From the IMG/VR virus record IMGVR_UViG_3300034161_000008, positions 154,437 to 218,436 of that record: DNA of 64,000 nt. One strand, given 5' to 3'. The notes beneath the pieces are model-generated. The model was not told the DNA's origin, searched no databases, and worked only from the letters and a program-made list of their open reading frames with translations. This DNA comes from a virus. Taxonomy: Duplodnaviria; Caudoviricetes. Made by a program: the position numbers and the translations under genes. Of this stretch, positions 2,340 through 63,339 are shown piece after piece (the stretch's first letter is position 1; each line of letters starts with the position of its first letter).

Positions 2340-3257
2340 ATGCCTATTTTCAACAAGCCCTCGGCTGATTTGGTATACGACCTCATCAACCAGGCTAACC
2401 CACAGTTGGTGAAACCGGCAACGACCGTCAACACCAAGCTAGGGGTTCCTGCTGTTATTGCTACACCGGGCTTGAACAAGCTCAACACCAGCATCGTTCT
2501 GGCTGCCGTACCGGGTGGAGATTACATCGGTCGCAAGACTGTAAACTATCGCCGCATCGATCTGGCTGCGCTGACCCGTGGTGTGACGATTGCAATCGAT
2601 CGTTATTCCGCTACTCAAGCCTCTGCGGGGACGGTGGTGTTTACCATCTACCAGCTGCTGCCATTCATCAACCAGCGCTACGGTCTGAACCTGACCACCG
2701 ACGACATCAACGACGGTAACATCCTGCGTGGGTCGACTCTGGTTAATGGTCAGTACACCACCACCGTGACCGTAACCGCGAAGCCTGGTAGTCTGGGCTA
2801 TATCGGTTCGTTCGCTCTGAAGTGGACGGGCGCTGCTCAGGACATCGGGTTGATGCTGGCTGTCTCTGAACTCCCGGCTCGCCAGTTCCCAGGCGGCAAC
2901 GACTTCAGCAACGGTCACACGGTGCTGAACGCCCTGACCTACGGCTACGACTGGACTACGATCTTCACGGCGAACCCGTGGTATCAGTACCCAGCCGGAA
3001 ACCCGAACGCAAACATTGCGGTCAACACTACCATGGGTGCGGTGTTCCAGTACATCAACTCCACGTACGGTACGAACTTTGCACCGTCCTTCCGTTTCGA
3101 CAACGAATACAACTTCGAAGTCCTGACGCTGCCGTCGGCTAAGTACCCAGAGCTCAACTCTGATTACTACAACCGTTGCCTGGTGTTCACACCAACCTCG
3201 GACACGGCCAAAGCGCAACTGGGTGCTGGCGTCATGCAGATGCACTACAACGTCTAA
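2340..3257 (+). CDS. Virion structural / tail-fibre-associated protein, family A
   Basis: 305 aa; VNYRRIDL, YGLNLTTDDI, AKPGSLGYIG, ends MHYNV. Confidence 0.7.
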   Translation: MPIFNKPSADLVYDLINQANPQLVKPATTVNTKLGVPAVIATPGLNKLNTSIVLAAVPGGDYIGRKTVNYRRIDLAALTRGVTIAIDRYSATQASAGTVVFTIYQLLPFINQRYGLNLTTDDINDGNILRGSTLVNGQYTTTVTVTAKPGSLGYIGSFALKWTGAAQDIGLMLAVSELPARQFPGGNDFSNGHTVLNALTYGYDWTTIFTANPWYQYPAGNPNANIAVNTTMGAVFQYINSTYGTNFAPSFRFDNEYNFEVLTLPSAKYPELNSDYYNRCLVFTPTSDTAKAQLGAGVMQMHYNV

Positions 3258-3267
3258 GGAGTGAGTC

Positions 3268-4146
3268 ATGTCTTATCAAGCGATTTCCCTTCCTGACTTG
3301 CTCGTCGAACTGAACAAAGCAAACGGCACTACGTTCACCACGAACGACGTTGCCTTTGCTAACCCTCAGGTTGTTGCAGGTACGTGGAAGGCTAAAACCA
3401 CACTCAAGAACACGGGTGTGGTCGTGACTGCCAAAGCTGGTAGCGCGTATCAAGGTCGTGCAAACATTCTGTACGATCGTCTGCCGTTGTCGGCACTGGA
3501 CCCGGCGAAGTTGAAGGGTTTCCAATTGGCTGCGTACCAACCAGCAAAGATCTACGACTTGTTGCCGTGGCTCAAATACTGGAACGGTTTGCAGCTGACC
3601 AGCGACGACATCAATGATGGCGATCTGGTAGACAACGGTGACGGCACTAAAACTGCTGTGATCTCTGCCAAGCCTGGATCGTACGGTTGGGTTGGGTCTG
3701 TATCGATTCTGGTCAAGCCAGGCGGTGCTTCACTCAACAACGTGTTGACGGCTCCTGATCTGATGGGTCTGAACTACCCAACAGCTTCGGATACTGACAC
3801 GTACTCGCAGATCTACATGTACGGCTACGATTTCACCACGTACTTCAACGACATCGTTGGGTTGAACGTTGGTGCAATCCCTGCTGCTTCCATCACTAAG
3901 TTGGTGGCTGCGTTTACGGCAGTGGACGTTTCCAGCGGTAAAGCACTGTGGAACGAACAAGCCAGTTCGACTGCGTGGTCGTTGGCCGGAGCTACTGTGG
4001 TTTCCAACGGGCTGAACAACCCTGTGACGATGCCGACCAACCCGGCGTACAAATACGTTCTGGCAATCAATTTGCGCAGCGATGTGTTGACGCCTGCTGG
4101 TACGCTGTACCTGCACTACAACGATCCGTTCGATCCGAACGCCTAA
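3268..4146 (+). CDS. Virion structural / tail-fibre-associated protein, family A
   Basis: 292 aa; RBS AGGAG; LYDRLPL, GLQLTSDDI, AKPGSYGWVG, ends LHYNDPFDPNA. Confidence 0.7.
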   Translation: MSYQAISLPDLLVELNKANGTTFTTNDVAFANPQVVAGTWKAKTTLKNTGVVVTAKAGSAYQGRANILYDRLPLSALDPAKLKGFQLAAYQPAKIYDLLPWLKYWNGLQLTSDDINDGDLVDNGDGTKTAVISAKPGSYGWVGSVSILVKPGGASLNNVLTAPDLMGLNYPTASDTDTYSQIYMYGYDFTTYFNDIVGLNVGAIPAASITKLVAAFTAVDVSSGKALWNEQASSTAWSLAGATVVSNGLNNPVTMPTNPAYKYVLAINLRSDVLTPAGTLYLHYNDPFDPNA

Positions 4147-4153
4147 CTGGGCT

Positions 4154-4177
4154 GGGTGGGTTCGCCCACCCTTTTTT
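4154..4177 (+). terminator. Intrinsic terminator
   Basis: GGGTGGG-TTCG-CCCACCC followed by T6, just after the stop at 4146. Confidence 0.85.
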
Positions 4178-4197
4178 ACTGATTTAGGAGACTACCC

Positions 4198-5223
4198 ATG
4201 TTACGTTGCGTCTGGGGCTTCGACCACGTTTTGAAGAACGTGCAGGAATCATGGTTGGCTAACAGCGGCTACTCGTTGTTTCGCAAGAACGCCGTCGCCA
4301 ACAAAGGACTCATCATCAACGACGATGGAGCCATCACTACACTACCGGGTGTTTCTACCGGGAACAACACGCAGCTTTATATCGACTGCACACCCGTAGC
4401 CGTCGCTGGTGTTACAAGTCTTGTATTCGGCCTTCGTCTCAAGACTCTTGCGCTTGGTAACAGCGGCGCAATGCTCTACTTTACTGGTGACAGTGCCGGG
4501 TCGTCATACGTCCAGCTATTGACGTTTGCTCAGCTGACCAAAGCAAACGTGGGTGATGAAGTTTACATCGAGGTTGTTGCGGATTTGGTTGCAGCTACGT
4601 TCACTGTCTTTATGGATGGGGTTCTGATTGTATCTCCTACCGCGATCGGTGCAACGCTCAATGGTCAGCTGAAAGCGGGCTTGGTGTGGGTGGCGGTCAA
4701 CCTCACTGGCTCCGGTCAGTCTGGTTTGATTTCTCTGCGCGACATGTACTTCTTGGATAACGTGGGTGGCGACGGCTTTGTTGGTCGTCAGGGTCCGCGC
4801 CGTGTTCAGAAAGTTGACTTCGATTTGGCCACCGGTACGGGCTGGACTACTACCGACGGCTCCGATCTGCTGACCACTCTCAAAGTGGCTCCAGATACTG
4901 CTAACCCAGCATTTGGTGTGGCTCCTTCCACTAAAGCACCGCTGGCCCTGTCGATGAAGTCTACCTTCTCTGATTCGTTCATCGTAGACGCCGTCTATGT
5001 ACAGCTGGCGGGTAAAGTGGACGCAGCAGGGGGCATCACAAAGACTCAGGTTAAGGATGGCGCTAACAGCACCACAGCGTCCAGCTTGAAATCTGACTTC
5101 ACCACCACCCTCAAATACGGCGTACCGGCTGGTGTCTTTGCGCGTCACCCATCGGGTGTTCGCTGGAACAGCGCCAACCTCGATACTGCTTCCTTTGTGG
5201 TATTGCCTGACCAGGTGAGCTAA
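4198..5223 (+). CDS. Family B GFDH-domain beta-rich protein (putative lectin-like fibre head)
   Basis: 341 aa; RBS AGGAG; N-terminal WGFDH, boundary motif DMYFLD..GDGFVGRQGP, C-terminal P.G.RW...LD; paralog of 7131, 8201, 9414, 11025. Confidence 0.6.
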   Translation: MLRCVWGFDHVLKNVQESWLANSGYSLFRKNAVANKGLIINDDGAITTLPGVSTGNNTQLYIDCTPVAVAGVTSLVFGLRLKTLALGNSGAMLYFTGDSAGSSYVQLLTFAQLTKANVGDEVYIEVVADLVAATFTVFMDGVLIVSPTAIGATLNGQLKAGLVWVAVNLTGSGQSGLISLRDMYFLDNVGGDGFVGRQGPRRVQKVDFDLATGTGWTTTDGSDLLTTLKVAPDTANPAFGVAPSTKAPLALSMKSTFSDSFIVDAVYVQLAGKVDAAGGITKTQVKDGANSTTASSLKSDFTTTLKYGVPAGVFARHPSGVRWNSANLDTASFVVLPDQVS

Positions 5224-56462: not shown

Positions 56463-57893
56463 TTAAATCGAGCCGAAGATCGTGCCGCTGGTTTCAGTGC
56501 CGGAGCAATCGATGTGCAATGCCGACAACAGCGAATCGAAGTCTTCAGCGATGGTCAGCGCATTCTGCGCCTGGTTAGTGACGACCGGTACAGTCAATGC
56601 ATCCGCAAAGCTTGGCACGCAGTAGTCAGTGAAAGGTGCATTGTTCAGCGAGATCTTGATCCACGACTCGCCGTACAAATCCATCTTCATTTCCAGATCG
56701 AAGGCAATCTGGTTGTTGTAGGTCAGGTCCATCAGAATCTCGTGCTTGAGACGAATCTCAAACTGATCCACGATCGGCTGAACTGGCAGCGATGTGAAGC
56801 TACGCGCATGGAACGGCACGAATGCCAGACCAGAGCCCATCACGTTGTTCGTAACCTTGAACACCAGCTCAGTCAGGTCCATGTCCATCATCAGGCTAGG
56901 AACAGACTGACTCAGAATGGTGGATGCCAGAGTGGTTGGGTCAGCGGAACCCCAGTCAGCAGTTTGACCAGCCCAGTGAGTTTCTGCTTTCTCAGCGATA
57001 CCCATTTGGATGAAGGTGGTTACGTGCGTGGTGTTTGGGTCCAGACGCTCGAGATCGCCCCAACGGAAAGTGTTACCCAGTGGAGTACCGCGGATCTGCG
57101 AGATCGCTGCCAAGAACGGGTCTTTACCGACTTGGTTGTCTGCCGCGTAGCCACGAGCCTGACTCAGGATTTGTTGCTCACCCTGACCGAACTCTTCAGA
57201 CTCTTTAGCATTGCGGTAGTTTTCCAACACGTTGGCCATGAACACTGGAGCCAGGTTGTTGGAGCGCGCCGACTTCACAGCCACGTTGGACATGGTGCTA
57301 CGGCCGTCGATTACCGTGGTGCCTGCTGGCAGGTGTGTACGAGACATCGCTGCGAACACGTCCTCTGGACGCATGCGTTGTTCGTTCATCCCGTTGCCGA
57401 TACCGCCCCAGTTGTTGTCAACCAGGATGTGCGAGTTGTCCGCTACGTTGAACATCGGCATGATGCCCATCGGAGTCATTTCTTGCGATTCGCGAACCAT
57501 CAACGTGGAGTTGACGTAGAACTCCATGTCTGGAGCGAACCCGCCGTTGTGACCAATCCCAGGGAAGTTGGTGTAGCCACTGATGTGCTCAGTGATCCAG
57601 CCACCCATGCGGAAGTTGTGACGCACTTTCGCGTGGAAGCGATAGCGCTGAGTGCCCCAGCCTTCTGGGATAAACAGTTGGGTTTCAGGTTGACTGCTCG
57701 GCATGATGAACTGGTTGGCGATACCGTTCAACATAGCAGGGGCGTAAGCACCGGCACCTTGCAGCTTGTCCTTGAACATGATCAACCCGTTGCCGTCGAG
57801 GTGGGTTTCGAATGGTCGGCGGAACTGATTGTTGTGTGTGCCGATTTCGAGGATGGTCATCTCGGTGACTTGGGTGCTGGCAACTGCGTGCAT
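56463..57893 (-). CDS. picA: Phage-nucleus protein import factor PicA/Imp1 (phiKZ gp69 position)
   Basis: 476 aa; directly follows the sigma-like subunit in the conserved block; GW..QRYRF...ISGYTN..G...DMEFYVN. Called mainly from synteny. Confidence 0.65.
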   Translation of the reverse strand: MHAVASTQVTEMTILEIGTHNNQFRRPFETHLDGNGLIMFKDKLQGAGAYAPAMLNGIANQFIMPSSQPETQLFIPEGWGTQRYRFHAKVRHNFRMGGWITEHISGYTNFPGIGHNGGFAPDMEFYVNSTLMVRESQEMTPMGIMPMFNVADNSHILVDNNWGGIGNGMNEQRMRPEDVFAAMSRTHLPAGTTVIDGRSTMSNVAVKSARSNNLAPVFMANVLENYRNAKESEEFGQGEQQILSQARGYAADNQVGKDPFLAAISQIRGTPLGNTFRWGDLERLDPNTTHVTTFIQMGIAEKAETHWAGQTADWGSADPTTLASTILSQSVPSLMMDMDLTELVFKVTNNVMGSGLAFVPFHARSFTSLPVQPIVDQFEIRLKHEILMDLTYNNQIAFDLEMKMDLYGESWIKISLNNAPFTDYCVPSFADALTVPVVTNQAQNALTIAEDFDSLLSALHIDCSGTETSGTIFGSI

Positions 57894-59413
57894 TAAATTG
57901 GTTCCTTCGATGCAATGGCTATAATGAGTTCAGCAAGCTTCTGCTTCATGTCGTACGGAGTAGCGTATCGACGATCGCGACGACCAGTAACGCGCTCCAA
58001 CCACTCTATCGGTAGTGTAAGCTTCCAGTCGAACTCGCTGAACAAATCGTTTACGTTTTCCAATGCTGTGATCGCCGCATTAGGTTGGCGTGTAGTCTTG
58101 CTCCGACCACCAGTACGTCTGTGGTGCGGATACAGCCGGTTCAGCACTTCGACCTGATCCTTAGTCAGTCGAGCTTTGGATTCGCCTCCAGAGACGAATT
58201 GCTCACCGTCGTTATCTTGAGCGATTGCACTCACCAGCGCAGCCAACTCCAGATAACCTTGATGCCACAGGATGGCCTGAGTCGCAGCCATGACCCGCAG
58301 GATCGCTTCTTTATTAAGCCGCAACAGTCCGCGAGGAGAAAGGGCGTCCGCCATAACCCACTGCATCAATGTTGTTTGGCATTCGTGGATCTGTGCATTT
58401 GCCAGCAGTTTTGTGGACTGAATGGATTTGTTCAGAATCCGTAGGTCCAGACTCGGATCTACTTTGAGTGCCATGCGCTCGATGTCTTCGGTGTACCAGC
58501 TTTGTACGACAATGTCGCCAGCGGCCGTTTGCTCTTTGATCTTGTAGCCTTCTGCAACCGAGATATTGTTTTCGCCTTCCGAGCGATCATCTACCGTTGG
58601 TTTGTCTTTAACCACCCCTTCGAAGTTGGAGTCATGTCCTTTGACTTTCTGCTGGATGTACTTGAACGTGAAGGTCACCAGATGCGATACGGGATCGAGA
58701 CCCCGGACGTCACCTACCGACAAACGACGAACCAACACCAAGCCCATTAACCACTCAGGGAATTTCTGACTGCCGATACCGCCGAGAATAGCCGAGGAGA
58801 TCGACTTGTCTTGAGGGATCGAGAACTCAACAAACTTCTTCAAACGACCGTACGCTTCGGAGTGCACGATGTTCGACAACCGCAGCAGTTGTGCTGCGTA
58901 CAACTCCTTGAAGACAGAGCCGTGTTCTTTACGAGTCATGAAAATGAACTCGCCCCAGATCGGCAGCATTGGACGCAGGCTGATTGCCAGGGTCACCAAC
59001 TGACGATAATCGTTTTGCAGATACGTGCGTTCCGGTGGCAGATCCGGAGAACTTTCGTTTTTGATTGACGACGGGATTCGAAGGTCAGCGTGGAAGCTGG
59101 CCCAATGATGCAGATCATCCTGATTGTGGAACCGATACAGCTCCGCGATAGGTCCACGAAGTTGCGCTGTCAGGGACTCGGAATCACCAGCTTCATCGAA
59201 CACAGAACGGATGCGTTGATAAATGCTGAAGATCATGTCTTGAGTAGCTTCGGGCAGATACGCCCAGTAGCCATTGATCTGTTCGAAGATGTCGTAGTCG
59301 CCAGAGAAACTGGTCTTATCGAACTGCGAGGTGTTCCAGTAGATGTCAATTCCTTTGTGGGAAGTGATCGCTACAGACCCGGAGTTAAGACTATCACTCA
59401 TCTTTATTTGCAC
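57893..59413 (-). CDS. nvRNAP sigma-like promoter-specificity subunit (phiKZ gp68 position)
   Basis: 506 aa; GTG start with RBS GGAGG; TATATTAC upstream; synteny. Confidence 0.7.
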   Translation of the reverse strand: MQIKMSDSLNSGSVAITSHKGIDIYWNTSQFDKTSFSGDYDIFEQINGYWAYLPEATQDMIFSIYQRIRSVFDEAGDSESLTAQLRGPIAELYRFHNQDDLHHWASFHADLRIPSSIKNESSPDLPPERTYLQNDYRQLVTLAISLRPMLPIWGEFIFMTRKEHGSVFKELYAAQLLRLSNIVHSEAYGRLKKFVEFSIPQDKSISSAILGGIGSQKFPEWLMGLVLVRRLSVGDVRGLDPVSHLVTFTFKYIQQKVKGHDSNFEGVVKDKPTVDDRSEGENNISVAEGYKIKEQTAAGDIVVQSWYTEDIERMALKVDPSLDLRILNKSIQSTKLLANAQIHECQTTLMQWVMADALSPRGLLRLNKEAILRVMAATQAILWHQGYLELAALVSAIAQDNDGEQFVSGGESKARLTKDQVEVLNRLYPHHRRTGGRSKTTRQPNAAITALENVNDLFSEFDWKLTLPIEWLERVTGRRDRRYATPYDMKQKLAELIIAIASKEPI

Positions 59414-59455
59414 GATACCTCCTGTTGAACATTACTACTACACTAGACCAATAGT

Positions 59456-59463
59456 GTAATATA
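59456..59463 (-). promoter_or_regulatory. Early (vRNAP) promoter TATATTAC
   Basis: Exact match to the phiKZ early consensus, 43 nt upstream of the gp68-like start. Confidence 0.75.
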
Positions 59464-59470
59464 TGGGCAA

Positions 59471-59524
59471 AAAAGATTAGACCCCGCTATCAAAGCCGGA
59501 GTCTAATCTTAGATGCTTTTATGC
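59471..59524. terminator. Hairpin AAGATTAGAC...GTCTAATCTT
   Basis: Perfect 10-bp stem; TTTTATGC lies 3' on the plus strand. Confidence 0.55.
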
Positions 59525-59612
59525 TTTTGTTACTCCCCCTTTGATTTAGCAATGGCTATGCCAAGTAACCCACGCAAACAGCCGTCTGCATGAGGTTCTT
59601 TATTTAAATCTT

Positions 59613-59652
59613 TTCTACAGCCCGGCTGGTGACAAACGTCGGGTTTGTAGAA
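59613..59652 (-). terminator. Imperfect hairpin after the lipoprotein gene
   Basis: TTCTACAGCCCG...CGGGTTTGTAGAA. Confidence 0.45.
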
Positions 59653-59688
59653 GAATGACTTAAGCCACTTAATCATCGGAGTTACCCC

Positions 59689-60009
59689 TTAACAGACGGT
59701 GTGGCCAATCTCGCCATTTTCAAGGACGCGATGGTATTTGAAAGACTCGCCTTGGTAGGTGCGTTCGATCAGCCAGAAGTGCGTGCCGATCTTGAGCGAC
59801 TCCCAACCACTGCAACGTTTGGACACGCTAACATCTTTAAAGAGTTCGCCAGTCTTTACGTCACGCAGATCAACGCGCATGTGCTTCGGCGGCTTGATAC
59901 CAACCACCTCGTATTCGCGTTGCTCGCTGTGGATCTCTTTATCACACCCCGACAGCATTACTGCTGCCAGGGCTACACCTACCAAAAGCGTCTTGCTCAG
60001 TTTCATCAC
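59689..60009 (-). CDS. Small lipoprotein
   Basis: MMKLSKTLLVGVALAAVMLSG-C lipobox; RBS AAGGA. Confidence 0.75.
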   Translation of the reverse strand: MMKLSKTLLVGVALAAVMLSGCDKEIHSEQREYEVVGIKPPKHMRVDLRDVKTGELFKDVSVSKRCSGWESLKIGTHFWLIERTYQGESFKYHRVLENGEIGHTVC

Positions 60010-60015
60010 TCGTCC

Positions 60016-60690
60016 TTAGAAAGGAATGTCGTCGTCGAAGGTATCGCCAGCCGGAGCCTGTTGAGGGCGCGGAGCTTGCTGTTGTTGTGGGCGACCGTTG
60101 CCGTCTTTCGGCTCAGGCTCTTTGTACTCGGTGACGATGATCTGTTCCATAACGGCCTGGATCAGAGTCATGTAGCCTTTGGCGTAGATCTTGGAGATCT
60201 CGCCTTTGCTGTATTCGGTGCCGTCTTCCTTGAACCAGTTGGCGAAGTCGCCAGGACCGATTGGGAATTTGATCTTCGGACGTTCGGCTTGTGGGGAGCA
60301 CAGGCTCAGCCAGATCACGCCTTCGTCGTCTTGACCGATCCAGAGCTCAGCAACAATCACTGGCTTCTCGGAACGACGGCCACCAGGGAAGATGAAGTTC
60401 TTCAGCTGGACTTTGTTACGGCACTTGCCCGGTGCGTCGATCGCAACTTGCAGGAAGTGCATGATGGCGAACAGGTCAGGCGAACCCATTGGGCCAGTGA
60501 TACGACCGTTGTCGTTCTTGCTGTCGTTCGGGTCGTTGGTGTAAACGGTGATGCGCGGGTTGTTGCCGGTGATGCCCCAACCGAACGTAGACCACTTGCC
60601 TTGGGCCGAAGGGCATGGCGTGGAGAGTTTCAGCTTTGCATGATCCAAAGCATTCTTTTTACGTTGTGGGAACTGCTGGTTGCCTGCCAT
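60016..60690 (-). CDS. chmC: Nucleic-acid-binding protein ChmC/Imp6 (phiKZ gp67 position) with SSB-like tail
   Basis: 224 aa beta-rich core, Q/P linker, ends DTFDDDIPF; position upstream of the gp68-like gene. Name inferred from synteny. Confidence 0.55.
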   Translation of the reverse strand: MAGNQQFPQRKKNALDHAKLKLSTPCPSAQGKWSTFGWGITGNNPRITVYTNDPNDSKNDNGRITGPMGSPDLFAIMHFLQVAIDAPGKCRNKVQLKNFIFPGGRRSEKPVIVAELWIGQDDEGVIWLSLCSPQAERPKIKFPIGPGDFANWFKEDGTEYSKGEISKIYAKGYMTLIQAVMEQIIVTEYKEPEPKDGNGRPQQQQAPRPQQAPAGDTFDDDIPF

Positions 60691-60741
60691 GTTTCAAGTC
60701 CTTCAAAGGTGCTGTTCAAATGATGGAGGAGGTGAGTATTT

Positions 60742-61581
60742 TTAGTTGATAATCTTGCGCAACACCTCTTTGTAGTACGGGTTCTGAAGCTGCCCAATAC
60801 CGTACATCATCTTGTCATGTGTTGTGACCGCCGACCATTTGTACTTCTCCGCGATCTCAAGGATTGCCCTTCGAAAGCGAATGTCCATTGGACGAAACGT
60901 TTCAGAATCCCCGAAGACTTGCAAGAAGCCCTCGTTAAAAGGAATCTGTACCAAATCCTTTCCGTTAAGGTATTTGGTGTACCACTGAGCACGTTCCTTG
61001 ATTTTGCCGGTGTGGGACTCCAGGAGTACCAACTCGGAGAATTGCTTAGCCGAGCATAGATCAAACGCGTAATGCGTCAGGATCATAGCTTTAGGCTGGT
61101 GGTCCAGTTTGAGTTTCAGATCAAAGATCTTCACTCGCCCGTTCTTACCCTCAGACGTCAACAAGTGCTCGATTGTCTGTTTCTGTAGCAGGGTGTACTC
61201 TTTCTGCTTTGTCGTGTTGTCTGGTCGGATCACGGCCATCTTGTAGCGACTGTCAATGTCCTTATAGTTGCTGACATAATAAATGATAGCGGTGGTCGGT
61301 GAAGCTTGTTTGACCGTAGACTCCAACTGATCCATTTCCTGCTGGATCGTTGCGGCAGCAGCTTGGGGCGAGATGCTGTTGGCATCCTGGTTATCCAACG
61401 CCCCATGAAAGTTGCGAAACAGAGTGCGGATATTAACCCACAACTCAGCGTACTCCAGGATCGGGGCGGTCTTCACCTCGATCTCTGGGTGTATGCCCAA
61501 CGCCGACTCAATAGCCAGCGAGGTTGCAATGGACAGTGGGAGTTGGCCCACCGCCCGGTCTGAGAAGTATTGGTCGCTCAT
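60742..61581 (-). CDS. Conserved core protein (phiKZ gp66 position)
   Basis: 279 aa; ATGA overlap with the SbcD-like gene. Confidence 0.6.
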   Translation of the reverse strand: MSDQYFSDRAVGQLPLSIATSLAIESALGIHPEIEVKTAPILEYAELWVNIRTLFRNFHGALDNQDANSISPQAAAATIQQEMDQLESTVKQASPTTAIIYYVSNYKDIDSRYKMAVIRPDNTTKQKEYTLLQKQTIEHLLTSEGKNGRVKIFDLKLKLDHQPKAMILTHYAFDLCSAKQFSELVLLESHTGKIKERAQWYTKYLNGKDLVQIPFNEGFLQVFGDSETFRPMDIRFRRAILEIAEKYKWSAVTTHDKMMYGIGQLQNPYYKEVLRKIIN

Positions 61582-62789
61582 TGCTGGATGATCCTTTGGA
61601 GGATTCTTTCAGAGCGCGAGAACAAAGCATCCGTAGCCCCATTACTGGCCAAACGCTCCATCAACAACGGAACGATGTTGTCGCGGGTGATGGTGATTGG
61701 CACGAACAGGGTTTGATCCTCAATCAAAGCCTTCTCTGACTCGGCGTCTTCACGACTGAGTTTTGAGAACTGGATAAACGGATAGTTTCGTATCAGCAGA
61801 TCCATGTTGGCAAAGATTGGGTTAGTGGACTCGCTCTCAACACGTACAAAGGATTCGTCAGGCAGAGTTAAAACTACCTTGTCAACCTCCTCCAGTGTCT
61901 GCTCCAAATCCATCCCCAAACACTTGATGGTGATGAACCGCATCGCATTGAAGTTTTCGTGGAACTGAACCTGCATGTCACCATTGGTTTGTTTGAAGAA
62001 CCGTAGGTGGCCTTTAGGTGCTTCCTCTCCATGTGCCAAGCGATCGAAACTGCCCTGAGCCAGAATCCGTTTGTAACGGGAGTACGTGTGGACGTGACCG
62101 ATAAAGATCAGTTCCTTCACGATACTCAAGTACGCTTCGGAGTCATGGCTCTGAGCTTTAACGTGGTCTGGTAACTGATGGGCAAACTGGCCATGCATAA
62201 TCGCATAGTCAACCTTATCCAATCCCTTCGCACGCAAAAGCTCATGGACCTGTCCCAGCGTCTTCTCAGTTGTGAGTTCCCACTCGTCCGGCACGTAAAG
62301 CACGTTGATACCCAAGTGCTCGATGTACTCGATCGAAAGAGTTGTCACATACTTCAGATCAGCCCCGATCTGCGCTGCTTCATTCATTGTCACAAACCGC
62401 TGTGACTGTTTCCAGTCATGCGATGGCGTGCCTTCCAGCACTCGCACCGAGATATTCCACTTCTTGCAAATACGCAGGAAGTCAGCAATCCAGAAGTCGA
62501 TGTCAGCAAGGTCTTCATCAGACAGTTGCAGCAGGTCATCGAACACGTCACCAGCCAACCAGATAATATCCAGTTCGCCAGTTTGAGCGTTGTCAGGGAA
62601 AGCATCGCGCAGGTTGATAACAATCCCGCGCGTGCCGTTACGGCGGTGGCCCAGATGGATATCTGAAACCACAGCTCCAGCCAAAGGCTTTTGAGTAGGC
62701 CCTAGCTGGAAATCTTTCCCTGCTGAAATCGCTCGCGCCAACGGGGCTAGTTGGAAGTTAGGCGAAGGAGAAGTCGTCGTCATCGTCAT
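61578..62789 (-). CDS. SbcD/Mre11-like metallophosphoesterase nuclease
   Basis: VSDIHLG, AGDVFD, EGTPSHD, HGQF, IGHVH; start uncertain (62789 or 62783). Confidence 0.85.
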   Translation of the reverse strand: MTMTTTSPSPNFQLAPLARAISAGKDFQLGPTQKPLAGAVVSDIHLGHRRNGTRGIVINLRDAFPDNAQTGELDIIWLAGDVFDDLLQLSDEDLADIDFWIADFLRICKKWNISVRVLEGTPSHDWKQSQRFVTMNEAAQIGADLKYVTTLSIEYIEHLGINVLYVPDEWELTTEKTLGQVHELLRAKGLDKVDYAIMHGQFAHQLPDHVKAQSHDSEAYLSIVKELIFIGHVHTYSRYKRILAQGSFDRLAHGEEAPKGHLRFFKQTNGDMQVQFHENFNAMRFITIKCLGMDLEQTLEEVDKVVLTLPDESFVRVESESTNPIFANMDLLIRNYPFIQFSKLSREDAESEKALIEDQTLFVPITITRDNIVPLLMERLASNGATDALFSRSERILQRIIQQ

Positions 62790-63339
62790 CGGTAGCGCCT
62801 TGTGCCGTAGCAGCAGGAGCTGCCGCTTTGAGCTTCTCGCGACCGTAACGTACCAGGATTTCATTCCAGCGTTGCAGGAATGCCGCGCGGTGTTCGCTTT
62901 CCTTATCGGTCAGCTTGAACGCCTCGAAGTGATCCATCATGAAGTTCATCCCAGCGATGGGAGACTGCATGGCGTACTGTTCAGCCGAACGCATGATGTG
63001 GCCCAAAGGCACACGGCGCTCACCCTTGTACATCACGGAGCGGTCCCAGATGGCCGGGACTTTGAACAGAGGTTGGCGGGTAGTGTCATTGAAAATGATC
63101 ACTTCGTGGAACGAGTTGCCAGCAACAGACAACCACTTTTCCAACCGCAGACGGCGATCGGACTCTTCCTTCAACTCGTTGTTGAAGAACGGCAAGAAGT
63201 AATCGCGGAAGATGCTTTCAGGCAGCCTCGGCAAGTCTTCGTCAGCCACTACCTGCAAGGCTTCTTGCACGGCAGTAATGGTTTTGTGCGAGCGCTCGTG
63301 ATACGCCTTCGTCAGGCGGTCGTTAGGAGCATCAGCCAT
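62758..63339 (-). CDS. Conserved core protein with acidic tail DDDDDDFSFA
   Basis: 193 aa; overlaps both neighbours. Confidence 0.6.
   Translation of the reverse strand: MADAPNDRLTKAYHERSHKTITAVQEALQVVADEDLPRLPESIFRDYFLPFFNNELKEESDRRLRLEKWLSVAGNSFHEVIIFNDTTRQPLFKVPAIWDRSVMYKGERRVPLGHIMRSAEQYAMQSPIAGMNFMMDHFEAFKLTDKESEHRAAFLQRWNEILVRYGREKLKAAAPAATAQGATDDDDDDFSFA

Follow-up and report, generated by a model that had tools for sequence, protein, structure and literature searches.

In PhiKZ-like phages, DNA replication takes place within a protein shell, yet no SSB turned up in comparative genomics; the absence was explicitly flagged as surprising, and non-orthologous displacement was suggested (Kazlauskas et al. 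2016, PMC4889955). The C-terminal peptide of bacterial SSB (SSB-Ct, DDDIPF) is well established as a hub for protein interactions (PMC5872125, PMC3632105).

One nucleic-acid binder of these phages is ChmC (Imp6). The PhiPA3 protein forms a homotetramer and binds ssRNA with a Kd of 58 nM and ssDNA with a Kd of 184 nM, a preference for RNA of about three-fold, and it cross-links to phage mRNAs. The protein is abundant, expressed early and partly cytoplasmic; it localises to the shell and the cytoplasm, is not spread through the whole nucleus, and was detected through proximity labelling from nuclear UvsX. ChmC is essential in PhiKZ. Knockdown of ChmC leads to smaller nuclei with less DNA.

In the tail of PhiPA3 ChmC, an N/G-rich region precedes an S/D/E-rich one (Enustun et al. 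2024). When the C-terminal region is deleted, condensates are lost and titre is not rescued, while nuclei still grow. PhiPA3 ChmC lacking residues 204-251 no longer forms condensates and retains tetramer formation and RNA binding (Enustun et al. 2024). Since the published deletion mutants lose the linker and the tip together, their phenotype is not assignable to the tip.

A chmC/imp6 ortholog with a predicted Whirly core

The window analysed here is a stretch of 64,000 nucleotides (positions 154,437 to 218,436 of IMG/VR record IMGVR_UViG_3300034161_000008); the complete genome has 218,436 bp. Its source is an uncultured, chimallin-encoding (nucleus-forming) jumbo phage: a ChmA (chimallin) homolog is present in the genome, where PhiPA3 gp53 matches 2846-4480 (E 3.5e-19). 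A megablast search of 57000-63000 against the GenBank phage collection returned no match, and a close cultured relative was not found. The nearest cultured relative is Burkholderia phage FLC9 (39% identity in ChmC, 52% in nvRNAP beta). Burkholderia and Ralstonia phages are the closest named relatives, a hint that the host is proteobacterial. The features of the locus are as follows.

61578..62864, minus strand: SbcD-like nuclease (PhiKZ gp65-like); phrog_100, E 1.7e-49, and gene order
60742..61581, minus strand: gp66-like conserved neighbour, 279 aa; phrog_3229, E 7e-87; order as in PhiPA3 and KTN4
60016..60690, minus strand: chmC/imp6 ortholog, 224 aa; ORF translation, phrog_3284, tblastn and BLASTP
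60130..60654, minus strand: predicted Whirly/PUR-like nucleic-acid-binding core, residues 13-187; AF2 model, structural matches, basic
60046..60129, minus strand: disordered linker, residues 188-215; low pLDDT; Q/P-rich, EPEPKDGNGRPQQQQAPRPQQAPAG
60019..60045, minus strand: acidic tip DTFDDDIPF, residues 216-224; SSB-Ct short linear motif match with a free C-terminal Phe
57893..59413, minus strand: gp68-like non-virion RNA polymerase subunit; phrog_3209, E 1.7e-117, and KTN4 annotation
56463..57893, minus strand: Imp1/PicA (PhiKZ gp69) homolog, 476 aa; phrog_3141, E 3.9e-83, and KTN4 gp69

The minus-strand ORF 60016..60690 encodes 224 aa, with the stop codon (60016-60018) included in the coordinates. 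Its ATG lies at 60690, an AAGGA ribosome-binding site is found 9-14 nt upstream, and homologs are alignable from residue 1. The product ends in ...QQQQAPRPQQAPAGDTFDDDIPF; the fuller translated end reads ...KDGNGRPQQQQAPRPQQAPAGDTFDDDIPF. The order SbcD-like nuclease, gp66, gp67, gp68 nvRNAP subunit and gp69 Imp1/PicA is kept between 62864 and 56463 on the minus strand and matches the order around chmC in PhiPA3 and KTN4; two small additional ORFs sit after chmC within this otherwise conserved arrangement. The Imp1/PicA homolog matches KTN4 gp69 by BLASTP (E 6e-18).

The product matches phrog_3284, the PhiKZ gp67 family, with an E of 6.6e-41. With the product as query, tblastn recovered 98 jumbo-phage records, including PhiKZ ORF067 (E 9e-19) and PhiPA3 gp61 (E 6e-17), and BLASTP aligned it with PhiPA3 ChmC at 32% identity (E 4e-24). 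Because sequence homology, conserved gene order, the predicted Whirly fold and the chimallin gene in the genome all agree, the ORF is a true ChmC/Imp6 ortholog (PhiKZ gp67, PhiPA3 gp61). The preliminary description had called it a ChmC/Imp6-position protein, and the same four lines of evidence bear this out. It had also named the opposite case, a protein other than ChmC that is simply a phage SSB; on checking, the ORF proved to be a ChmC homolog that lacks PF00436 and is predicted to adopt a Whirly fold.

The AF2 model (mean pLDDT 90.5) shows an ordered core over residues 13-187 and a tail of low confidence. In an exhaustive structural alignment against 48,161 chains, the best four PDB matches were StWhy2 (Z 8.5), PBF-2 (7.9), MRP1/MRP2 (7.5) and Pur-alpha (6.1). 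Z values of 6.1-8.5 are middling, yet four Whirly/PUR proteins head the list and span the whole core. Foldseek of the model against the PDB gave weak Whirly/PUR matches only (E 0.01-0.09); a sequence search against PDB chains gave none at E <= 1, and a Pfam search gave no hit at E <= 0.1. The core is predicted to have a Whirly/PUR-like fold. Residues 1-190 have a pI of 9.08. Of the six basic residues changed in the PhiPA3 Kmut/Rmut mutants, only three have a basic counterpart in this protein (K32, R46 and R63).

The alternative that the ORF is a phage copy of bacterial SSB, unrelated to ChmC, has a negligible probability. The likeness to SSB is confined to the linker and tip, and a weak match to phrog_18187 (residues 190-224, E 2.8e-4) covers the tail alone; against this reading, the core is homologous to PhiKZ gp67 and PhiPA3 gp61, the gene order is the same, and neither the product nor the complete genome has a Pfam SSB match. 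The fold predicted for the product is Whirly rather than OB. Identity as an ordinary OB-fold phage SSB was ruled out on the absence of PF00436 and on the predicted fold.

The SSB-like tail in this phage and across the ChmC family

Residues 188-224 have a pLDDT of about 61-77 and lack secondary structure in the AF2 model. The preliminary description had reported a Q/P-rich linker followed by DTFDDDIPF and had likened this tail to the C-terminal tip of bacterial SSB. Minus-strand translation confirms the first point, and comparison with E. coli K-12 SSB (NC_000913.3), which ends ...PPMDFDDDIPF after a G/Q/P-rich linker, supports the second: the final seven residues (FDDDIPF) are identical, in a species that may not be the host, and 14 of the 25 terminal residues align. 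The tip carries four acidic residues.

The motif is unique in this genome. DDDIPF occurs once in the six-frame translation of the complete genome, immediately before a stop codon; the chance expectation of such C-termini from the genome's amino-acid composition is 8e-6. Among all ORFs of the genome with 50 aa or more, an acidic tail with an aromatic end was found, besides ChmC, in only two weak and dissimilar cases. The tail-coding DNA had no blastn match in 5,426 E. coli genomes, so nothing indicates that the tail was recently captured from an ssb gene of the E. coli type.

Like ChmC/Imp6 of Chimalliviridae (PhiPA3 gp61, PhiKZ gp67, Goslar gp176), this protein has the same homologous core with a predicted Whirly fold in a chimallin-encoding genome, is encoded between a gp66-like gene and the gp68 nvRNAP subunit beside Imp1/PicA, and ends in a disordered region with an acidic stretch and a terminal aromatic residue. 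It differs in its linker, which is shorter (about 28 residues vs 50-70) and Q/P-rich rather than N/G-rich. Its tip is the exact SSB heptapeptide FDDDIPF, unlike those of PhiPA3 (IPNF), PhiKZ (MPSF) and Goslar (degenerate).

The family has roughly 780 members. Right alignment of 151 representatives that share no more than 50% identity gives the consensus D-D-D-[I/L]-P-F, preceded by a disordered linker rich in G, N and Q; endings were counted over 198 family members. Among the representatives, the last six positions carry D (49%), D (61%), D (76%), I/L (77%), P (88%) and F (76%), and the final residue is F, W or Y in 89%. Conservation climbs sharply over these six positions, and the G/N-rich linker before them (G 30%, N 13%) holds little positional information. 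A hydrophobic-Pro-aromatic ending is present in 151/198 members and an aromatic final residue in 181/198; Lys or Arg falls within the last 8 residues in only seven of the 198. The tip has a net charge of -3 to -4. Canonical tips are spread across the whole core-domain tree, and in a control set of Imp1 homologs the hydrophobic-Pro-aromatic ending was found in 0/66.

The SSB-like tail is an ancestral, family-wide ending of ChmC, not a peculiarity of this phage. Tail conservation among ChmC orthologs, which had been proposed as a check, is borne out by the family counts. The preliminary description had spoken of a host-SSB mimic; the match of the tip to SSB stands, but with a family-wide ending the words "host mimic" may be too narrow.

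The tips of the model phages depart from the consensus. PhiKZ (FDEDMPSF) and PhiPA3 (FDDEIPNF) have one extra residue that separates Pro from the final Phe, and the tips of Goslar (...AFDGLAF) and 201phi2-1 (...ELASFDW) are degenerate. Judged from these sequences, the insertion and the degenerate Goslar tip argue that, at least in the PhiKZ, PhiPA3 and Goslar lineages, the partner is phage-encoded or the ChmC core itself, not a host SSB-binding pocket. Relaxed tips in the best-studied phages also indicate that strict SSB-Ct geometry is not universally required. Atypical tips in three model phages suggest why the motif was overlooked: in the searchable literature the region is described as an S/D/E-rich cluster, and SSB is unmentioned.

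Possible roles of the tip

The favoured reading, to which a probability of roughly 0.6 is given, is that the tip acts as an SSB-Ct-type peptide that serves both partner docking and self-regulation. In free ChmC, the acidic tip would fold back on the basic face that binds nucleic acid, either in its own tetramer or in an adjacent one, tuning nucleic-acid binding and driving condensates. Coating of single-stranded nucleic acid by ChmC would release the tip, and the released Ile/Leu-Pro-Phe with its free carboxylate could dock in a basic-rimmed hydrophobic pocket of partner enzymes. Docked enzymes would then be concentrated on ChmC-coated RNA or ssDNA in or around the phage nucleus. Candidate partners are phage DNA/RNA enzymes, host SSB-interacting proteins, or both. 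A docking motif is expected to keep specific hydrophobic residues at a free C-terminus, as is the case here; a cluster of charge alone could do without them.

The RNase H-clamp protein Rhc, nvRNAP and DNA polymerase subunits copurify with ChmC. Rhc was considered as a tip partner because E. coli RNase HI binds SSB-Ct and Goslar Rhc pulls down ChmC; against this, gp67 was not flagged in a published AF2 all-against-Rhc screen in PhiKZ.

It is fairly unlikely that the tail only combines a self-regulating electronegative cluster with a low-complexity region that forms condensates, and recruits no partner. Such a cluster, shielding the basic RNA-binding face and tuning phase separation, was proposed for PhiPA3 ChmC, and the loss of condensates with tetramer and RNA binding kept in the 204-251 deletion agrees with it, as does the pairing of an acidic tip with a core that is basic family-wide (pI about 9). 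The tip of bacterial SSB also contacts its own DNA-binding core. A charge cluster, however, needs composition and not position, whereas conservation of the tail peaks at the uncharged I/L-P-F at the exact C-terminus, and an electronegative cluster alone is at odds with the prevalence of an aromatic final residue. The SSB hexapeptide is moreover a proven docking motif, and self-binding and partner docking are compatible.

A further alternative is host takeover. Each ChmC tetramer would present four SSB-Ct copies as a decoy for the SSB partners of the host (chi, PriA, RecQ, ExoI, RecO, Ung and others). With these titrated off host SSB, host replication and repair would be shut down, or nucleases would be kept off phage nucleic acid. 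This is the sequestration that the preliminary description had suggested, and a low probability is assigned to it. The seven-residue identity with the enterobacterial SSB tip speaks for it, together with the abundance, early expression and partly cytoplasmic location of PhiPA3 ChmC; FDDDIPF is the exact ending in 10/198 family members, Proteus phage 10 among them. The Pro-Phe insertions of PhiKZ and PhiPA3 and the degenerate Goslar and 201phi2-1 tips oppose it, given that the SSB of the hosts of these phages (Pseudomonas, E. coli) is expected to end in a canonical tip. A simple decoy would also have no need of a long linker on a tetramer that binds nucleic acid.

The tip could also be a handle through which the Imp1/PicA import machinery at the shell recognises ChmC or its bound cargo. 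This role takes up the import side of the preliminary description and is considered very improbable. PhiKZ gp67 binds Imp1 directly in a 2:1 complex (bioRxiv 10.1101/2024.03.27.586873), and the chmC and Imp1 genes are near neighbours in all genomes examined, this window included. Wild-type Goslar ChmC also forms puncta inside the nucleus, whereas the protein without its C-terminal region is found at the perimeter. On the other side, the Goslar and PhiPA3 proteins lacking this region still reach the shell, the 2:1 stoichiometry points to the folded core as the part engaged by Imp1, and the complex was obtained with "gp67-FLAG", in which the free C-terminus would be blocked if the tag is C-terminal, as the construct name may suggest. 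Complex prediction for the Imp1/PicA homolog with full-length ChmC of this phage gave scores of 0.57, 0.00 and 0.00, which count neither for nor against binding.

A broader proposal, tentative and somewhat unlikely in our estimate, is that ChmC is the missing SSB of these phages. A Whirly tetramer would have displaced the OB-fold SSB and kept, or converged on, the SSB linker and DDDIPF tip, coating replication-fork ssDNA and nascent mRNA with the tip as a hub. The complete genome gave no match to PF00436, gp32 (PF08804) or gp2.5-like (PF10991) profiles, and PF00436, the sole SSB profile tried there, is absent in PhiPA3, KTN4, Goslar, Proteus phage 10 and FLC9. ChmC would act in a compartment expected to exclude host SSB, and its tip would organise phage DNA polymerase/Rhc, UvsX-like recombination, nuclease and transcription machinery, possibly with imported host SSB partners as well. 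If this is true, the "condensate" phenotype of the C-terminal deletions would be at least partly a loss of hub function. The RNA preference, mRNA cross-links and localisation of PhiPA3 ChmC fit mRNA handling better than a replication-fork role.

Parallels with other single-strand binders and significance

ChmC reproduces the three-part architecture of bacterial SSB on an unrelated fold: an oligomeric single-stranded nucleic-acid-binding core, a G/Q/P/N-rich disordered linker and an acidic (F)DDDIPF tip with a free terminal Phe. The tail of bacterial SSB is required for condensate formation, as is that of ChmC. The two differ in the core (OB in SSB, predicted Whirly/PUR in ChmC, which PF00436 does not match) and in substrate, since ChmC binds RNA in preference to ssDNA and in vivo is bound to phage mRNAs. 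ChmC is at most a functional analogue of bacterial SSB, not a family member.

The best structural matches, StWhy2, PBF-2/p24 and trypanosome MRP1/MRP2 (Z 7.5-8.5), are tetrameric ssDNA/RNA binders, and the organellar Whirly proteins of plants have roles in protecting ssDNA and in its repair. Whirly proteins and MRP1/MRP2 have no detectable sequence similarity to ChmC, with 6-7% identity in the structural alignment; to our knowledge, no SSB-type DDDIPF tip is known on plant/organellar Whirly proteins or MRP1/MRP2. T7 gp2.5 and DUF669 proteins are OB-fold DNA binders. They provide a precedent for phage single-stranded nucleic-acid binders that are non-orthologous to host SSB and use an acidic tail with a terminal Phe for partner contacts; prophage DUF669 ssDNA binders carry DDDIPF itself (PMC13687109). 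Unlike them, ChmC is Whirly-fold (as predicted), mainly RNA-binding and tied to the phage nucleus.

ChmC is an essential, abundant and early tetrameric binder of single-stranded nucleic acid whose C-terminal region is required for progeny production. The family-wide SSB-Ct motif yields a cheap and concrete hypothesis, namely that the last six residues are a protein-recruitment handle, and this hypothesis separates the function of the tip from condensate formation. The tip is a potential bait with which to find proteins brought by ChmC to phage RNA, to ssDNA or to the import/export machinery. If it also engages host SSB partners, it would offer a route for selecting host enzymes for the phage nucleus, or for keeping them from it.

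Identity of P0001 and its surroundings

P0001 is encoded by the following open reading frame (ORF):

60016..60690, minus strand: ChmC ORF of 224 residues with the C-terminus ...EPEPKDGNGRPQQQQAPRPQQAPAGDTFDDDIPF, then a stop codon

The SSB-type tail on this protein is confirmed and solid. A Q/P-rich linker followed by DTFDDDIPF had been noted in the preliminary description, and it is borne out by translation of the ORF and by comparison with E. coli K-12 SSB, whose C-terminus is ...SAPAAPSNEPPMDFDDDIPF (taken from its genome record). The two proteins share their final seven residues exactly, and 14 of the 25 terminal residues align. Positions 60016-60110 span the stop codon and the tip, along with most of the Q/P-rich linker. 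An AAGGA ribosome-binding site 9-14 nt 5' of the start and homologs whose alignments begin at residue 1 support the start codon call. Translated in six frames, the complete 218,436 bp genome contains DDDIPF exactly once, immediately 5' of a stop; about 8e-6 such C-termini are expected there by chance. The tail-coding DNA has no match among E. coli genomes.

The assignment of P0001 to ChmC, also proposed at the outset, is solid. The protein has no match in Pfam; it matches phrog_3284 (E 6.6e-41), and tblastn finds about 100 jumbo-phage genomes, including PhiKZ ORF067 and PhiPA3 gp61, to which the name ChmC was given (BLASTP E 4e-24, 32% identity across residues 25-196). A common gene order is found in the window, PhiPA3 and the PhiKZ-like KTN4: SbcD-like nuclease, gp66-like, gp67/ChmC, gp68 non-virion RNA polymerase (nvRNAP) subunit, gp69 Imp1/PicA and nvRNAP beta subunits. 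An AF2 model built from an alignment of 62 sequences (mean pLDDT 90.5) shows residues 13-187 as an ordered core, followed by a tail of low confidence without structure. Its best four structural matches among 48,161 PDB representatives are StWhy2 (Z 8.5), PBF-2 (7.9), MRP1/MRP2 (7.5) and Pur-alpha (6.1); the predicted Whirly/PUR fold is the one reported for PhiPA3 ChmC (PMC11077065). Homology, gene order and fold therefore rule out the alternative that P0001 is not a ChmC homolog and simply a phage SSB.

The complete virus record, of which the window is the right end, has direct terminal repeats and also encodes a chimallin homolog. Its closest cultured relative, Burkholderia phage FLC9, is only 39% identical in ChmC and 52% in nvRNAP beta. 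The gene adds a new and divergent member to a family already known. Other features around it are:

59689-60009, minus strand: small ORF, 106 aa; its signal peptide is of lipoprotein type (…AAVMLSGC), and it weakly matches phrog_19964 'membrane protein, moron' (E 2.8e-6)
59530-59676, minus strand: small ORF, 48 aa, Cys/His-containing protein
59480-59497, minus strand: terminator-like hairpin, then a T-run, 3' of the two small ORFs and 5' of the gp68-like gene
61578-62864, minus strand: SbcD-like ORF, 428 aa from the first ATG, overlapping the upstream ORF (62758-63339) by ~100 nt

The two small ORFs (59530-60009) stand between chmC and the gp68-like gene, the first starting only 6 nt from the chmC stop. 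They are absent in PhiPA3, KTN4 and the closest metagenomic relative, whose ChmC is 77% identical to P0001 and which has only a 277 nt gap at this position; they look like a lineage-specific moron insertion. The hairpin and T-run suggest that gp68 is transcribed separately from a unit made up of chmC and the inserted ORFs; with 2 terminator-like sites found against 1.7 expected by chance, this is weak on its own. The counterpart of the SbcD-like ORF in that relative (L015:968-2110) is 380 aa long, which makes an internal codon the probable true start.

Conservation of the tip across the ChmC family

Conservation of the tail across ChmC orthologs, a check proposed in the preliminary description, was found. 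A word-indexed search with P0001 gave 38 homologs, and an exhaustive HMMER scan of 1.84 billion cluster representatives gave 779 relatives at E <= 1e-3, the best 150 of which were examined. When the C-termini of 151 representatives (<= ~50% identical to one another) were right-aligned, positions within the linker were only weakly informative (G 24%, N 10%). The final six columns showed a consensus: D 49%, D 61%, D 76%, I/L 77%, P 88% and F 76% (F/W/Y 89%).

In a 198-member set with ten named phages added, 151 members end in hydrophobic-Pro-aromatic, 181 in an aromatic residue of any kind, and 10, Proteus phage 10 among them, in exact FDDDIPF. Lys or Arg falls within the last eight residues in only 7/198, and the last ten carry a median net charge of -3. 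None of 66 Imp1 homologs has the hydrophobic-Pro-aromatic ending. On a core-domain-only tree of 196 leaves, canonical and relaxed tips are intermixed (52 changes); the motif is thus old and has been maintained, rather than being one lineage's recent acquisition. What these alignments add to the family assignment is that the SSB-type tip is the conserved ending of ChmC proteins family-wide. A metagenomic member, P0159 (466 aa), has its ChmC core at residues 190-377 after an N-terminal extension of ~190 residues and still ends ...FDTDIPF, either as a fusion or because its start was called wrongly.

The model phages carry atypical tips. A residue is inserted between Pro and Phe in PhiPA3 (...SGFDDEIPNF, L001:2932-3690) and PhiKZ (...SAFDEDMPSF, KTN4 L002:2938-3678); among the 198 sequences, no others than PhiPA3 and the PhiKZ-like phage have this insertion. 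The tails of Goslar (...DDDDPSVAFDGLAF, ending AFDGLAF, L005:472-1260) and 201phi2-1 (...ELASFDW, L008:601-1344) are degenerate. The ChmC paper displays the tails of PhiPA3, PhiKZ and Goslar and describes an N/G-rich segment, then an S/D/E-rich 'electronegative cluster'. 'SSB' is not mentioned in that paper, in reviews or in the Rhc (RNase H-clamp protein) preprint; a search of the Imp6 preprint for C-terminal terms gave nothing on the gp67 tail, and full-text searches of the accessible literature for nucleus-forming phages and SSB gave nothing relevant. The tip was probably overlooked since the displayed tails are atypical. Against the 151/198 with the common ending, model-phage results may therefore under-represent tip function.

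SSB-like architecture and the missing SSB

ChmC consists of a basic core (pI 9.08 in P0001, family median 9.06), a low-complexity disordered linker and an acidic tip. The core is a single-stranded nucleic acid binder. PhiPA3 ChmC forms a homotetramer with Kd 58 nM for ssRNA and 184 nM for ssDNA (PMC11077065). Bacterial SSB has the same three-part plan, including a G/Q/P-rich linker in E. coli, but a non-homologous fold. The ChmC tail could stem from long-ago capture from an ssb gene or from convergence.

Even at E <= 1, none of PF00436 (bacterial SSB), PF08804 (T4 gp32) and PF10991 (gp2.5-like) finds a match in the complete genome, and PF00436 has none in PhiPA3, KTN4, Goslar, Proteus phage 10 or FLC9. 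This agrees with the absence of SSB from phiKZ-like phages, called surprising by Kazlauskas, Krupovic and Venclovas (2016), who suggested undetected OB folds or non-orthologous displacement (PMC4889955). ChmC is a candidate for such displacement in nucleus-forming phages. It is abundant and early, and antisense and transposon screens show it to be essential in PhiKZ. Proximity labelling around nuclear UvsX identified it; after its knockdown, nuclei are smaller and hold less DNA, and Rhc, DNA polymerase and nvRNAP subunits co-purify with it (Rhc preprint). However, ChmC has a preference for RNA, its in vivo ligands include phage mRNAs, and it is concentrated at the shell, and the knockdown DNA deficit could be secondary to global phage-protein loss. 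Goslar Rhc pulls down ChmC. Elsewhere in the genome, beyond the window, lies an ORF of 531 aa (G000:C1:69502-71097, L013:595-2190, minus strand) that carries an RNase H domain (PF00075, E 9e-20) and is probably the homolog of Rhc (PhiKZ gp155).

Candidate mechanism and partners of the tip

The bacterial SSB C-terminal peptide is an established interaction hub (PMC5872125, PMC3632105), and prophage DUF669 proteins show that ssDNA binders of phages have borrowed this host tip before (PMC13687109). By analogy, the ChmC tip may act as an SSB-type docking peptide. In free ChmC, it would fold onto the basic side of the Whirly core; nucleic acid would displace it, and the terminal I/L-P-F and carboxylate might then dock onto partner proteins. 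Position-by-position conservation of uncharged terminal residues speaks for a docking motif rather than a cluster of charge alone. Published delta-C mutants, which lack residues 204-251 in PhiPA3 or the equivalent stretch in Goslar, lose condensates and do not rescue titre, with nuclei still growing. Since linker and tip are both removed, the late, essential function ascribed to condensates could belong partly to the tip.

In PhiKZ and PhiPA3 the inserted residue, and in Goslar the degenerate tip, speak for self-binding or for a partner that is encoded by the phage and co-evolves with the tip; exact FDDDIPF, as in P0001 and Proteus phage 10, would suit the SSB-binding pockets of host proteins as well. 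For Imp1 a role as tip partner is unlikely, judging from a construct name only: the PhiKZ Imp1 complex was obtained with a construct written 'gp67-FLAG' (bioRxiv 10.1101/2024.03.27.586873), a tag that, if C-terminal, blocks the free terminus. The hook for host enzymes or import first proposed is a candidate reading, one of several possibilities. With an SSB-type tip family-wide, ChmC would be recast as a hub that resembles SSB but is built on a Whirly scaffold, and the search for the missing SSB in nucleus-forming phages gains a lead that is direct and testable.
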